From Candidatus Uhrbacteria bacterium (lineage in GTDB: Bacteria; Patescibacteriota; Patescibacteriia; UBA9934; GWF2-40-263), in contig JACRJU010000013.1 in assembly GCA_016219925.1 (NCBI GenBank), positions 102,566-166,565 of the forward strand: a stretch of 64,000 nucleotides of DNA, written 5' to 3'. The stretch's first letter is position 1; each line of letters starts with the position of its first letter. The translations under genes were made by a program, and so were the position numbers. The notes beneath the pieces were generated by a model that saw nothing but the letters and a program-made list of their open reading frames with translations, did no database searches and had not been told where the DNA came from. This document shows positions 20,899 to 63,219 of the stretch, piece after piece.

Positions 20899-22851
20899 AT
20901 GGAGATTTCAGGGAAAAAAGCGTTTCTCCCACCGAGGGAACTCGTCCGCGGGTCCAATATCCAAACGCTCGGCGCATGGGCTGATGAGTGGATGAATGCC
21001 ACCCTGACCGACCCGGACGGCTTTTGGCTGGACGTGGCGCGTCGTCGCGTGATTTGGCGCAAGGAGCCAACCATCGGCCTCGAAGGCGACTTCCACTCGG
21101 CCCGCCGTAAACCCCTGCGCTGGTTCGGCGACGGCACGCTCAACGTGACCGAGACTTGTCTCGATCAACACCTCCAGAAGCACGGCGATAAGACCGCGAT
21201 CATCTGGGAGGCGGATGAGCCGGGCACCGGTTGTACGCTCACCTATCGTGAGCTCCACGAGAAGGTGTGCGCCGCGGCGTGCATGCTCTACCTGCTCGGC
21301 GTTCGGCGCGGCGACCGCGTCGTGATTTACATGGGCATGGTGCCCGAGGCCGCGATCGCGATGCTCGCCTGCGCGCGCATCGGCGCGATCCACTCGGTGG
21401 TCTTCGGCGGCTTCTCCGCCGAGTCCCTGCGTGATCGCATCATCGACTGTGGCGCGAAGCTCGTGATCACCCAGGACGAGGGACTCCGCGGTGGCAAGAT
21501 CGTGCCGCTCAAGCGTACGTGCGACCAGGCGCTGGTCGACCTCGGGCAAGTCGAGCGCGTGGTGGTGTTCAAGCGCACCAAGGGCGAGGTGCCCTGGACC
21601 GAGGGTCGCGATGTCGAATGGAAGCTCTCGGACGCGACGTACTTCCCGGCCGAGGTGATGGAGGCGGAAGATCCGCTCTTCATCCTCTACACGAGCGGTT
21701 CGACCGGCAAGCCCAAGGGCCAGGTTCACACCTGCGGCGGGTATCTCGTCTACGCGAGCTACACGCACGAGACGGCCTTCGATCTGCGAGACAACGACGT
21801 CTACGCCTGCGTGGCAGACGTCGGCTGGATCACCGGCCACACCTACATCGTCTACGGTCCGCTCGCGAACGGTGCGACGACCCTCCTGTTCGAGTCCACC
21901 CCGACCTATCCGGATGCGGGGCGGTACTGGGACATGGTGGATCGCCACAGTATCACCGTGTTCTACACGGCGCCCACGGCCATCCGCGTGCTCGCGGCGG
22001 CCGGCGACCAGTACGTCTTTCCCTACGACCGTTCGACCCTGCGCGTGCTCGGCACCGTGGGCGAACCCATCAACCCCGACGCCTGGATGTGGTACTACAA
22101 GATCGTCGGTGGCGAGCGGTGTGCAATTGTCGACACCTGGTGGCAGACCGAGACCGGCGGCATCATGATCTCCGGCTGTCCGGCCGCGACGCCCATGATC
22201 CCGGGTTCGGCTACTCTTCCGCTCCCGGGGATCCTGCCCGTGATCGTTGGTGCTGATGGCAAGCCCATCCGCAGCCCGGGAACGGGACGGCTCTGCATCG
22301 CAGAACCCTGGCCTGGTATGACCCGAACCATCTGGCGCGATCACGAGCGCTACGCGGCGACCTACCTCGAAGAGGTGCCCGGGATGTACTTCACGAGCGA
22401 TGGATGCTCTCGCGACAAGGCCGGCAACCACACGATCAGCGGTCGGGTGGATGACGTCATCAACGTCGCCGGCCACCGCATGGGAACGGCCGAGTTCGAA
22501 TCCGTGCTGACCGCAGACCCGTTGGTGGCGGAATGTGCGGTTGTCGGCTTCCCGCACGAGGTGAAGGGACAGGGCGTGTGCGCCTTCGTCGTGCTCATCA
22601 GCACGACGGTTCCTGAAGACCTCGCGGCACGGCTCAACGCGCTTTTGCGCGACAAGATCGGCGCGCACGCGAAGCTCGACGTTCTGCACATCGTCCCGGG
22701 TCTGCCCAAGACCCGCTCGGGAAAGTGCATGAGGCGTATCTTGCGCGCCATGGCCAAAGGAGAAGACAACTTTGGCGACATCTCCACGCTCGCCGACCCG
22801 AGCGTGGTGCAGGCTATCCACGACATCGTGCGGGCCCAGCCTTCTTCGTGA
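20899..22851 (+). CDS. acs: acetyl-CoA synthetase (AMP-forming)
   Basis: YTSGSTGKPKG AMP-binding motif, an ACS-specific N-terminal region and a C-terminal A10 Lys region. About 65% GC versus the roughly 50% backbone. SD GGAGGAG lies 3 nt before the ATG. Confidence 0.9.
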   Translation: MEISGKKAFLPPRELVRGSNIQTLGAWADEWMNATLTDPDGFWLDVARRRVIWRKEPTIGLEGDFHSARRKPLRWFGDGTLNVTETCLDQHLQKHGDKTAIIWEADEPGTGCTLTYRELHEKVCAAACMLYLLGVRRGDRVVIYMGMVPEAAIAMLACARIGAIHSVVFGGFSAESLRDRIIDCGAKLVITQDEGLRGGKIVPLKRTCDQALVDLGQVERVVVFKRTKGEVPWTEGRDVEWKLSDATYFPAEVMEAEDPLFILYTSGSTGKPKGQVHTCGGYLVYASYTHETAFDLRDNDVYACVADVGWITGHTYIVYGPLANGATTLLFESTPTYPDAGRYWDMVDRHSITVFYTAPTAIRVLAAAGDQYVFPYDRSTLRVLGTVGEPINPDAWMWYYKIVGGERCAIVDTWWQTETGGIMISGCPAATPMIPGSATLPLPGILPVIVGADGKPIRSPGTGRLCIAEPWPGMTRTIWRDHERYAATYLEEVPGMYFTSDGCSRDKAGNHTISGRVDDVINVAGHRMGTAEFESVLTADPLVAECAVVGFPHEVKGQGVCAFVVLISTTVPEDLAARLNALLRDKIGAHAKLDVLHIVPGLPKTRSGKCMRRILRAMAKGEDNFGDISTLADPSVVQAIHDIVRAQPSS

Positions 22852-22870
22852 GCTGGGCTTTTTTATTTTA
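22834..22870 (+). terminator. rho-independent terminator overlapping the acs stop codon
   Basis: gcccagc-cttcttcgtga-gctgggc followed by TTTTTTATTTT. Confidence 0.6.
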
Positions 22871-22917
22871 AAAAGGCTCTGTGTGCAGAGGGTTCTCAAG
22901 TGCGCTATACTCTTTTT

Positions 22918-23010
22918 ATGAAAAAGAAAGCCTTTCGCACTTTTTGGATGGTGATTGCCATCCTCGTTATTCTTTCGATGGTGATGTTTATGTTTCAGTT
23001 GGGGTACTAA
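22918..23010 (+). CDS. putative 30-aa hydrophobic peptide (MKKKAFRTFWMVIAILVILSMVMFMFQLGY)
   Basis: An ATG 7 nt downstream of a TATACT -10-like hexamer, encoding a single predicted TM helix. It ends (TAA at 23008) immediately before an AAGGAG at 23012-23017 in the recJ upstream region. Below the ORF-track size cutoff; speculative. Confidence 0.2.
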   Translation: MKKKAFRTFWMVIAILVILSMVMFMFQLGY

Positions 23011-23098
23011 GAAGGAGCTTCTGTCCAAACACTGGCACTTCAACGCCCTCATCGACGATGCCATTCGTCAACAATTCCCGGAGATCCATCCGGTTCTT

Positions 23099-61979: not shown

Positions 61980-62042
61980 ATCAAGCGCACGGAGAATATC
62001 ACATTCAACGAAAATTGTCACCCGTGATAGGATAAGGTCGTT

Positions 62043-62501
62043 ATGTCTAAACACACGATGGAACACACCTTTACTATGATTGCCTCTGTCTATTTGGTTT
62101 TACAAAATGCGCGCGGGGAAGGGCTCTTGTTGAAACGGAAAAATACGGGATTCAAAGATGGAGAGTATGGGCTCCCCGCAGGACATGTGGATGGAGGAGA
62201 AACATTGAGCGAAGCGATGCGTCGCGAGGCGCGAGAGGAAATTGGGATTGAGATTGCCCCAAAGGATTTGACATTAGCTCATGTGATGCATCGAAATTGT
62301 GGCGATCATGAGCGGTTGGATTTTTTCTTTACGTGTCATCGGTATCGAGGAGAAGTGCGTAATTGTGAAGAAGGAAAGTGTGAAGAATTACGGTGGTGTT
62401 CCCTTGATGTCCTTCCTGAAAAGACGATCGACTATTACGTTCAAGCATTTTCCGCGATCAAGCACGGAGTGTTGTATGGCGAGTTTGGGTGGATTGATTG
62501 A
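62043..62501 (+). CDS. NUDIX hydrolase
   Basis: The Nudix box GLPAGHVDGGETLSEAMRREAREEIGI matches the GX5EX7REUXEEXGU signature. Confidence 0.75.
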   Translation: MSKHTMEHTFTMIASVYLVLQNARGEGLLLKRKNTGFKDGEYGLPAGHVDGGETLSEAMRREAREEIGIEIAPKDLTLAHVMHRNCGDHERLDFFFTCHRYRGEVRNCEEGKCEELRWCSLDVLPEKTIDYYVQAFSAIKHGVLYGEFGWID

Positions 62502-62526
62502 CACCGAGACGCGTGGCACGTATACT
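62498..62526 (+). promoter_or_regulatory. consensus sigma70 promoter TTGACA-17-TATACT for upp
   Basis: TTGACA 62498-62503, TATACT 62521-62526. SD GGAGG lies 5 nt before the ATG at 62560. Confidence 0.5.
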
Positions 62527-62559
62527 TTCGCCAGCCAACGGATGGCTCTGGAGGACTTC

Positions 62560-63219
62560 ATGTCCAACGTGACCGTGATCGATCATCCGCTCGCGCGCGC
62601 CGCTCTGACGGTATGCCGCGACGCCAACACCCCCAGCGGTGGACCATTCGCCCGCCAGATGGCGCGCGTCGGACGCGTCCTGGCCCCGTACGCTCTGGCT
62701 GGCATCGAGACCGACGCCAAGCGTGTCCAAACCCCGCTTGAGGTCGGCCACGATGGCGTGATCCAGCACGGCAAGGTCGCGCTGGTTCCCATCCTGCGGG
62801 CTGGCAAGGCGCTCGAACAACCGTTCGCCGACCTGCTCGAGCGATACTGCGTCTGGGACCTGGGTCTACGTCGCAACGAGCAGACGCTCAAGCCCGAGCA
62901 GTACCTCAACCGCATCCCCGAGCGTGTGCCCGCCGTTGTCCAGCACACGATCGTGCTGGAGATCATGCTCGCGACCGGCGGCTCGAGCGTCCACGCGGTG
63001 GACATTCTCAAGGAGCGCGGAGCGACGAAGATCACGTTCGTGTGCGTCGTTAGCGCGCCCGAAGGCATCCGCAAGCTGTCGGAAGCGCATCCGGATGTCG
63101 ACATCTTCACCGTCGCCGTTGACGAACGCCTCACCACCATGGAGGATGCGTTCCCTCCCGGCTACATCGTTCCGGGACTGGGCGATGCCGGCAGGCGCCT
63201 CAACGACTCGGCCGAGTGA
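62560..63219 (+). CDS. upp: uracil phosphoribosyltransferase
   Basis: VIDHPLARAALT N-terminus, ALVPILRAG, the PRPP-binding VLEIMLATGGS motif, and the C-terminal YIVPGLGDAG. About 65% GC. Confidence 0.85.
   Translation: MSNVTVIDHPLARAALTVCRDANTPSGGPFARQMARVGRVLAPYALAGIETDAKRVQTPLEVGHDGVIQHGKVALVPILRAGKALEQPFADLLERYCVWDLGLRRNEQTLKPEQYLNRIPERVPAVVQHTIVLEIMLATGGSSVHAVDILKERGATKITFVCVVSAPEGIRKLSEAHPDVDIFTVAVDERLTTMEDAFPPGYIVPGLGDAGRRLNDSAE

Follow-up and report, generated by a model that had tools for sequence, protein, structure and literature searches.

Most single-gene GC-rich islands of an Uhrbacteria chromosome recur, with their expression signals, in related lineages

Why should single genes scattered along a bacterial chromosome be far richer in G+C (GC) than the genes on either side of them? 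The question is raised by a 64,000-nt stretch of contig JACRJU010000013.1 (hereafter the window), part of a metagenome-assembled genome (MAG) of Candidatus Uhrbacteria, within the candidate phyla radiation (CPR) or Patescibacteria; its genes correspond to NCBI proteins MBI5370120 to MBI5370177. The initial annotation described at least ten GC-rich islands of a single gene each in a backbone of about 50% GC, and proposed that they had been acquired repeatedly, as expression-ready genes, from high-GC donors or that the assembly was chimeric. The island genes are acs (acetate–CoA ligase), a 79-amino-acid (aa) open reading frame (ORF; orf79), an OPT transporter gene (OPT), a glycosyltransferase gene (GT), a gene for a secreted A/D-rich protein, a GGDEF gene, a gene for a PgsA-like CDP-alcohol phosphatidyltransferase (CDP-OH PT), a PNP-like gene, csp, and upp (uracil phosphoribosyltransferase). 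Their coordinates and signals are collected in table 1. We find that the GC mosaic is a property of the clade and, on balance and with some reserve, we favour the view that the islands are a conserved gene class held GC-rich by a persistent GC-favouring force.

Segmentation of the window with a two-state GC hidden Markov model (HMM) revealed eight gene-sized high-GC segments, each of 0.62-0.66 GC, within a backbone of 0.45-0.51. None of them lies in the first 20.9 kb, and their borders fall within ~30 nt of the ends of coding sequences (CDSs). The single-gene islands are thus real, and so is the distinctness of their codon usage. GC at third codon positions (GC3) was 0.69-0.84 in the seven intact large island genes, compared with 0.42-0.64 in the backbone. 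The genes orf79 and csp fall below the length resolution of the HMM and group with the islands by their codon indices, namely C/(C+T) for pyrimidine-ending and G/(G+A) for purine-ending third positions (hereafter the pyrimidine and the purine index). The PNP-like gene is a weak member of the group, with a pyrimidine index of 0.66 and a purine index of 0.59. The biggest codon shifts run from T to C (islands versus backbone: TAC 0.93 versus 0.30, TTC 0.87 versus 0.28, ATC 0.89 versus 0.45), accompanied by a shift from A to G in which the AAG share rises from 0.36 in the backbone to 0.86 in the islands. AGG and CGG are also higher in the islands, while four-fold codons ending in G are almost unchanged and GGG is lower.

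This GC excess is limited to the CDSs. Promoters, leaders, terminators and flanks have 0.41-0.60 GC, adjacent genes show no GC3 gradient toward the islands, and GC3 is evenly high along each island except for a 5' dip in acs and GT. Island coding strands are alike whether they lie on the plus or the minus DNA strand (four-fold C 0.45, G 0.35), whereas those of the backbone differ by strand. Transcription-associated C-to-T decay of the backbone was considered and set aside, as C is not depleted relative to G once the replication strands are averaged. Further islands lie just outside the window. Upstream, on a contig of the Logan assembly that reaches 9.6 kb beyond the window (L170), are a 190-aa orphan with an SD (Shine-Dalgarno) sequence (582-1154, minus strand, GC3 0.83) and a partial hexose dehydratase gene of island type (1-477); downstream is a lipid-kinase-like gene (Logan contig L002, 6850-7776, minus strand, GC3 ~0.75).

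The sharpness of the composition switches could point to a chimeric assembly or a binning artefact, and the exact acs, OPT and GGDEF products are listed from NCBI only, not from Logan. However, Logan contigs of run SRR12113407 (L001, L002 and L003), which another assembler built from that run, are 99.99-100% identical to the window, with at most one mismatch in 9.9 kb, and cross both borders of six islands (GT, A/D-rich, CDP-OH PT, PNP, csp and upp); the upp junctions are identical in L002. The acs and OPT junctions are carried by an independent MAG from another sample, GCA_040960375.1, and by a Logan contig of run SRR25508629, both of which have the same lepA-acs-recJ and DUF5671-OPT-121aa arrangements. 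The borders also fall at promoters and terminators, not at random points. Assembly artefacts at the island borders are excluded, and the probability that chimerism or misbinning created the mosaic is negligible.

The chromosome uses two sets of expression signals. A targeted search combined with reading found TTGAC-N17 followed by a TAnnnT or CAnnnT/CAnnnA -10 box before eight of the ten islands and before one of 39 backbone genes. The -10 box of the islands lies 33-44 nt before the start codon, or 86 nt in csp. Generic sigma-70 and terminator scans gave 9 hits against 12 expected from shuffles at 20-40 kb and 22 against 13 at 40-60 kb; the sigma-70 scan does not discriminate because the island -10 boxes are of the form TAnnnT and not TATAAT. 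The energy of the duplex with the anti-SD sequence averaged -7.9 kcal/mol in islands (n = 9, 78% at or below -6) and -1.8 kcal/mol in the backbone (n = 41, 12% at or below -6). A hairpin with a T-run follows every one of the ten islands. The initial annotation had given the islands canonical promoters, strong SD sequences and GC-stem terminators, and had noted backbone genes with no recognisable SD (nrdJ, ligA, pilM, the pilin gene, rpoD and dnaX). Its terminators and its SD-less backbone genes are borne out in full. Its promoters hold for eight islands, that of GT being uncertain and the PNP candidate having a 16-nt spacer, and its strong SD sequences hold for most islands, those of csp, PNP and GT being weak or absent.

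Backbone genes differ from islands in further respects. T stands at position -1 in 48 of the 57 backbone genes, against one of 11 islands (Fisher p = 3e-6); the islands mostly have C. About ten operon-first backbone genes (for example those starting at 8926, 28744, 31771, 34570 and 41973 on the plus strand and at 43427 and 51190 on the minus strand) are preceded by an extended -10 box, TGnTAnnAT, whose end is 8-12 nt from the ATG; no island has one. This suggests that operon-first backbone genes would be read from leaderless mRNAs. Within operons, TAA-TT-ATG junctions are frequent. The backbones of three related loci (L085, L087 and L169) display this same set of features. A long CU-rich tract was also noticed directly before the start codon, in place of an SD, in the gene for ribosomal protein L28 (L170, 7529-7774, minus strand), in nrdJ, in the pilin gene and in an RNase H-like gene; in the window such tracts lie upstream of 5496, 34012 and 4497.

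We then compared the islands with ~30 Uhrbacteria loci from a DnaG scan of species-representative genomes, which are partial genome stretches labelled by L numbers and whose backbone GC ranges from 0.33 to 0.61. The closest relative found was the locus of GCA_040960375.1 (L085; GatA 82% and LigA 74% identical). Gene order is kept in relatives (ligA-gatCA-lgt-trmB, dnaG-rpoD-ECF sigma and mutY), and relatives share no fewer than five or six of the ten islands, with acs, OPT, GGDEF and CDP-OH PT at the same site. In L085 an intact acs occupies the same site (19038-20969, minus strand) with 83% aa identity and the same promoter; the gene list of GCA_040960375.1 omits it in favour of an opposite-strand ORF of 316 aa. 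L085 also has OPT in synteny, with a GC3 of 0.78 against ~0.48 in the local backbone, and a further OPT copy in L087 has GC3 0.67 against ~0.30. Three loci (L005, L013 and L014) have GGDEF in synteny, upstream of dnaG, and L005 and L014 keep its promoter and SD. In L005-L008, L013, L014 and L169, CDP-OH PT follows the rpoD-ECF sigma block and, in loci that have mutY, that gene as well. The csp gene was found in several of the relatives' loci that bear GGDEF or CDP-OH PT, not at the same site. GGDEF, CDP-OH PT and csp each have GC3 above that of their neighbours in each relative's genome. The A/D-rich protein has weak C-terminal similarity to GC-rich secreted ORFs in L013 (E 6e-6) and L016 (E 1e-4, syntenic).

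Promoter, leader, SD and terminator are kept in the orthologues, the csp copies being without an SD; OPT orthologues retain both the SD and the terminator stem AGACCC...GGGTCT. Many relatives also hold additional gene-sized GC-rich segments, mostly encoding orphan or secreted proteins, and a Pfam search with ten GC-rich ORFs of relatives left most without a family. Because the same genes, with the same signals, are GC-rich at the same sites in relatives, and because there are more such segments there, the mosaic is a property of the clade. Most of the islands appear, from these comparisons, to be old residents.

Long residence could still have left them with a composition in decay toward that of the host. 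The comparison of the window with L085 revealed the opposite, a stationary composition. Backbone four-fold sites are near saturation, with an identity of 0.37-0.41 against 0.25 expected, and those of OPT are fully saturated (0.38 against 0.35 by chance). Four-fold C and G are fully interchanged in OPT while G+C at these sites is still 0.76-0.84, and CDP-OH PT behaves alike. The offset of each gene, expressed as a logit relative to its local backbone, recurs across genomes with backbone C/(C+T) values between 0.20 and 0.49. It amounts to +1.6 to +1.8 in C/(C+T) and +1.0 to +1.4 in G/(G+A) for OPT, to +1.6 and +1.3 for acs, and to +0.9 to +1.5 in G/(G+A) for CDP-OH PT in eight genomes; the offsets of csp and GGDEF lie mainly in the pyrimidine index. 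A constant logit offset is the expectation under a balance of mutation with selection (or conversion), not under the decay of foreign DNA. Neutral amelioration from one ancestral import is likewise rejected by a simple relaxation argument on OPT. The excess of four-fold identity is ~0.05, at which only about a fifth of any initial GC offset should be left; the excess of 0.24 GC at OPT is not a remnant because a starting offset greater than 1, which is impossible, would be needed. A persistent GC-favouring force on the island coding sequences is therefore required.

These results bear directly on the proposal that this genome acquired the islands recently and independently from high-GC donors. 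The composition and signals of the islands do resemble those of typical GC-rich, SD-using bacteria, and four islands have no orthologue in the relatives' loci examined. No homologue of orf79 was found in any relative's locus, six more distant relatives (L005, L009, L016, L018, L019 and L020) lack GT at the syntenic site that follows trmB, and PNP and upp gave no tblastn match in the relatives' partial loci, L087 having no upp beside its NUDIX gene. These four may be recent gains. However, recent import of acs, OPT, GGDEF, CDP-OH PT and csp is contradicted by their copies in relatives, and the best hits of acs, OPT, CDP-OH PT and GGDEF lie in the backbone's own lineage, an outcome that the initial annotation had itself named as counting against import. 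Among 5.8 billion proteins, searches with acs and OPT revealed no donor above 70% identity. Recent acquisition fails for most islands because of their constant offsets, their saturated synonymous sites and a CDP-OH PT family whose identified carriers are all Uhrbacteria-like contigs, and we regard it as a highly improbable explanation of the islands in general. The initial description of self-contained, expression-ready single genes stands, while their repeated recent acquisition by this genome does not for most islands.

A related possibility is that the islands are continually re-imported or replaced from GC-rich bacteria or GC-rich Uhrbacteria and so never lose the donor composition. The best non-CPR matches of acs (66% identity) are Acs proteins of Myxococcota/Deltaproteobacteria type, and those of OPT (57-61%) come from Elusimicrobia and Myxococcota; the closest copies of both, at 83% and 66-69%, lie in Uhrbacteria. 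Judging from these identities, an ancient entry of both genes into the clade from outside the CPR is probable. The acs allele is moreover less diverged between the window and L085 than its flanks (83.4% against 70-77% nt identity), in a segment that starts at the -35 box and ends just short of the stop codon; four-fold identity in acs is 0.68 against ~0.38 in the backbone, and transitions outnumber C<->G changes. The allele is thus unsaturated and younger than the species split, and the pattern indicates that acs was exchanged between Uhrbacteria lineages after they separated. The gap between the DUF2914 and DUF5671 genes (28394-28743) holds orf79 in the window but, in L085 (14436-15458), an ORF of 312 aa in the opposite orientation, and looks like a variable insertion slot for different GC-richer genes. 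Island orientation is near random, three islands adjoin tRNA genes, and GC-rich Uhrbacteria exist that could act as donors (backbone GC3 0.69-0.77 in L018, L022 and L034).

Against such turnover, island GC3 tracks each local backbone at a constant logit offset, implying long residence, and the four-fold sites of OPT and CDP-OH PT are saturated between syntenic orthologues. Searches with CDP-OH PT yielded 16 word-indexed homologues (out of 5.8 billion proteins) and 114 clusters (out of 1.84 billion representatives). All carriers that were identified were Uhrbacteria-like contigs, and neither the word-indexed nor the exhaustive search found a homologue above ~63% identity or a close one outside this small divergent family, so that CDP-OH PT appears to have no identifiable GC-rich foreign donor. 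No integrase or transposase is present among the annotated window genes (parts of 14-34 kb are unannotated), no repeat family marks the island borders, and the islands share no direct or inverted repeat sites. At 70-77% nt identity the flanks are also too diverged for easy homologous replacement between the sampled lineages. Turnover of this kind suits acs but is unlikely as a general account, although it ranks above recent import.

What, then, could maintain the composition? Ordinary translational selection would make the islands the most expressed genes of the genome, with ribosomal-protein-like codon usage. Their consensus-like promoters, strong SD sequences and good terminators fit this explanation, as do the 5' GC3 dip in acs and GT and the gene-specific intensity kept across species. 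A preference for NNC over NNT is also common to the islands (C/(C+T) 0.71-0.86) and to the genes for L28 (0.81) and HU (0.67, two-fold NNC 0.85), for which L170 was the source. The C-ending preference is therefore common to native, normally abundant genes (L28 and HU) and to csp and GGDEF; the codon shift of csp is C over T only, like that of L28 and HU, and that of GGDEF is mostly C over T.

The purine choices are different. In L28 and HU, AAG does not exceed AAA, and G/(G+A) is 0.39 and 0.50, respectively, whereas the core islands reach 0.78-0.84. The core islands with this extra G-over-A preference are acs, OPT, CDP-OH PT, upp, GT, orf79 and two islands just outside the window. As these two short reference genes lack it, ordinary translational selection would not account for the core islands. 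The use of AGG and CGG increases in the islands, four-fold C and G replace each other freely, and several island functions are unlikely to belong to very abundant proteins. The rplU gene of L035 has no GC3 excess, though that genome is island-free; it was the sole match when 29 E. coli ribosomal proteins were searched by tblastn against the relatives' loci. A screen for basic small ORFs found no further ribosomal protein genes, and a metagenome scan with the L035 L21 protein for ribosomal protein genes of island-bearing Uhrbacteria returned unrelated bacteria only. We consider ordinary translational selection a very unlikely explanation on its own.

GC-biased gene conversion (gBGC), in which the islands would be within-population recombination hotspots with repair biased toward G and C, has been documented as a cause of within-genome GC3 heterogeneity in bacteria (Lassalle et al. 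2015, PMC4450053). It would predict several features of the islands, namely a bias in the same direction on pyrimidine- and purine-ending choices in acs, OPT, CDP-OH PT, upp and GT, a synonymous preference for G and C that is independent of specific codons, so that the two interchange at four-fold sites, and the post-speciation exchange of acs. However, the GC excess ends sharply at the limits of single CDSs, with no third-position gradient in neighbours and with untranslated regions (UTRs) not clearly raised. Hotspots would need to match single genes and to be fixed, gene by gene, across deeply diverged species. The bacterial effects reported for gBGC are also said to be smaller than the difference of ~30 GC3 points seen here. 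Taken together, gBGC is a distinctly unlikely explanation, if a better one than ordinary translational selection.

We return to the reading of a conserved class under a persistent force and ask what that force may be. The chromosome holds two gene classes, an operonic backbone of ~50% GC and monocistronic GC-rich islands. Backbone operons lack an SD and carry T at -1, their first genes probably being leaderless by way of the extended -10 box. An island unit typically consists of a -35/-10 promoter, a 30-45-nt leader with a strong SD, codons ending in G or C, especially C, and an intrinsic terminator. In the mechanism that we propose, the GC-richness of the islands would be the stationary state under a bias confined to their coding sequences, and its likeliest agent would be selection at synonymous sites tied to the expression mode of the leadered, SD-dependent class. 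The C-over-T component is common to L28, HU and csp, whereas only the core islands have the G-over-A component. Our preference for selection over biased conversion as the force is tentative, and we would put it short of even chances. What such selection acts for is likewise inferred; transcript stability, the silencing of promoter-like A/T-rich sequence and a state-specific pool of tRNAs or ribosomes are proposed targets. TAnnnT hexamers are depleted relative to synonymous-codon shuffles (observed/expected 0.50 on the sense and 0.33 on the antisense strand of islands; backbone 0.64 and 0.71, respectively), but because TA avoidance confounds this comparison, a purging of promoter-like hexamers is suggestive only.

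Several observations weigh against a conserved class under selection. CPR bacteria are expected to show weak codon selection, and GGDEF, the PgsA-like enzyme and orphan secreted proteins do not have obvious high-expression functions. The free interchange of C and G at OPT four-fold sites argues against selection for specific codons. L28 and HU together use AAG for 9 of 25 lysine codons, against 0.86 in the islands, a comparison with two short reference genes only. The islands also have higher GC1 and GC2 (0.63 and 0.47, against ~0.56 and ~0.40 in the backbone), as would be expected of general GC pressure or foreign origin. To these are added the non-CPR affinities of acs and OPT, the exchange of acs, which shows that cassettes do move laterally, and the four islands without orthologues in the relatives' loci. 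The more specific proposal of two parallel expression regimes, a native leaderless or coupled one with T at -1 and a conserved leadered, SD-dependent monocistronic regulon under class-specific synonymous selection, is doubtful in this full form.

Table 1. Island units and adjoining features of the window, with signals, family matches and HMM high-GC segments (position 1 is the first nucleotide of the window).
Feature	Strand	Extent	CDS	Promoter	SD	Terminator	GC3	Family match	High-GC segment
acs	+	20837..22866	20899-22851	TTGACA-17-CAAAAA, -35 at 20837	GGAGGA	from 22852, + T-run	0.83	NCBIfam acetate-CoA ligase equivalog, 888 bits vs cut-off 725	20928-22858
orf79 (79-aa ORF)	+	28400..28728	28460-28699	TTGACA-17-CAGAAT, 28400-28428	AAGGAGG	28698-28728	0.76		
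OPT transporter	-	29680..31728	31660-29735	TTGACG-17-TAACGT, -35 at 31728-31723	GAGGTGA	29706-29690, AGACCC...GGGTCT + T-run	0.84	Pfam OPT 4.6e-40	29758-31653
GT	+	40775..41953	40882-41895	uncertain: TTGCCA-17-AATCAT, 40775-40803	weak	41917-41942, GGGCGCC...GGCGCCC + T-run	0.77	weak GpgS/MPG-synthase similarity	41002-41944
Secreted A/D-rich protein	-	43884..44632	44559-43918, GTG start	TTGACA-17-TAAGTT, -35 at 44632-44627	AGAGGTG	43916-43896 + T-run	0.79	no Pfam or NCBIfam family	43896-44567
tRNA-Ser(GGA), between the A/D-rich and GGDEF units	+	44809..44896						ARAGORN, Rfam	
GGDEF	-	44946..45850	45783-44980	TTGACA-17-TAGGGT, -35 at 45850-45845	GAGGTAGG	44969-44953 + T-run		Pfam GGDEF 3.5e-21	44953-45646
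Acidic 48-aa micro-ORF (MLLPYSFVMDDEDWGSDDDEDKEG...GGEEW), just 5' of the CDP-OH PT promoter	+	51286..51432				own hairpin terminator			
CDP-OH PT	+	51468..52312	51538/51541-52290	TTGACG-17-TACGAT, 51468-51496	GGAGGA	52282-52305 + T-run	0.81	Pfam CDP-OH_P_transf 1.9e-11	51610-52303
tRNA-Asn(GTT), directly downstream of the CDP-OH PT unit	+	52428..52502							
PNP-like, frameshifted	-	53858..54832	N-terminal frame from 54781; C-terminal frame ends 53895	candidate: TTGACT-16-TAAGAT, 54832-54805	weak or none	53884-53866	0.61-0.63	NF006054, 1.8e-25, below curated cut-off	53866-54802
csp	+	54849..55205	54964-55161	TTGACA-17-TATACT, 54849-54877	none; T at -1	55176-55197 + T-run	0.68	Pfam CSD 3.7e-21	
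upp	+	62498..63266	62560-63219	TTGACA-17-TATACT, -35 at 62498	GGAGGA	63244-63258 + T-run	~0.8	NCBIfam uracil phosphoribosyltransferase NF001097, 186 bits vs cut-off 114	62587-63382

Annotation with Pfam and NCBIfam profiles, and with ARAGORN and Rfam for tRNAs, backed the gene names given initially to acs, OPT, GGDEF, csp and upp, while GT and CDP-OH PT gave only weak family matches. The frameshift that had been noted in the PNP-like gene is real. Its two frames meet at ~54107-54110, the fused protein covers positions 23-272 of the 274 of its NCBIfam profile, and the sequence is identical in the Logan assembly of the same run. It represents either a true pseudogene, a recoding site or a read-level error common to both assemblies. 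The ~86-nt 5' UTR of csp (54878-54963) is well kept in L087 (upstream of 675, minus strand) and has no Rfam match at the gathering threshold; its conservation is as would be expected for a regulatory cold-shock leader. The micro-ORF that precedes CDP-OH PT has a start context of backbone type, with T before the ATG. An extremely acidic micro-ORF of 46-48 aa (MLL.YSFVMDD.EWG...EEW) is kept in L169 at 9745-9885, and its 3' end (..EDW*) in L007 and L008.

Two other features of the window were noted. A small patch of 0.67 GC at 38060-38302 lies within gatA and is not a separate gene; we suspect that it reflects the local amino-acid composition of the protein. A ~43-nt intergenic element, CCTGCCGGAGGGAACAACGGCGACGAGTCCGTTGGCCCGGAG, occurs in three copies (5392-5436, 8772-8816 and 39844-39878), one on either side of nrdJ and one in the lgt-trmB gap; the one that follows nrdJ sits within a longer inverted repeat. 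The element has no Rfam match, and the Rfam scan returned tRNAs only.

How do the islands compare with known systems? In the model of Lawrence and Ochman, horizontally acquired islands reportedly ameliorate toward the composition of the host. Like the islands of horizontal gene transfer (HGT), those described here have atypical composition and codons, accessory functions, adjacency to tRNA genes in some cases, non-CPR homologues (acs and OPT) and their own signals. Unlike them, they are single genes, GC-rich where AT-rich islands are usual, and have no integrase or border repeats; they occupy the same sites in deeply diverged relatives, at a constant logit offset that does not converge on the host. 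They also differ from integron cassettes, which are promoterless and form an attC array with an integrase, in being dispersed, with their own promoters and no common repeat sites. Medigue et al. in 1991 are said to have distinguished three codon-usage classes in E. coli (ordinary, highly expressed and horizontally transferred). The islands resemble such classes in being a discrete set of genes with its own codon table that overlaps in part with the preferences of ribosomal protein and HU genes. They differ in that the class is also set apart by promoter, leader, SD and -1 base, in a G-over-A preference absent from L28 and HU, and in orthologues that retain membership across genomes with backbone GC3 of ~0.3-0.55. 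Leaderless-mRNA-rich genomes (group C of GeneMarkS-2) include those of Mycobacterium and Deinococcus. The backbone shares with them a -10 box at a short fixed distance and operon-first genes without SD, mixed with SD-led genes; here, in contrast, the SD-led minority is compositionally distinct, and T at -1 extends to operon-internal genes.

Within-genome compositional heterogeneity is itself already known, but its usual explanation, recent HGT, fails for most of these islands. Composition-based methods would label them recent transfers, and estimates of HGT in Patescibacteria could be inflated if so. A survey of 125 Patescibacteria genomes with IslandViewer found genomic islands and transferred genes to be numerous, reaching as much as 13% of genome length, and does not describe a conserved GC-rich class (PMC12455944). 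Our literature search found no account of leaderless or SD usage, or of GC3 classes, in Patescibacteria. GC-rich genes in a lower-GC backbone are also prone to mis-calling, as with the acs gene missed in GCA_040960375.1. If the chromosome does have two expression regimes, base composition would mark the mode of expression and not the origin of a gene, and composition-based calls of HGT in the CPR would be systematically misleading. A GC3 excess that survives saturating divergence, in a small genome whose many sequenced relatives differ widely in backbone GC, would offer a clean natural test of selection against biased conversion. Leaderless or coupled initiation with a near-universal T at -1 would likewise be a testable statement on how translation is initiated in CPR bacteria.

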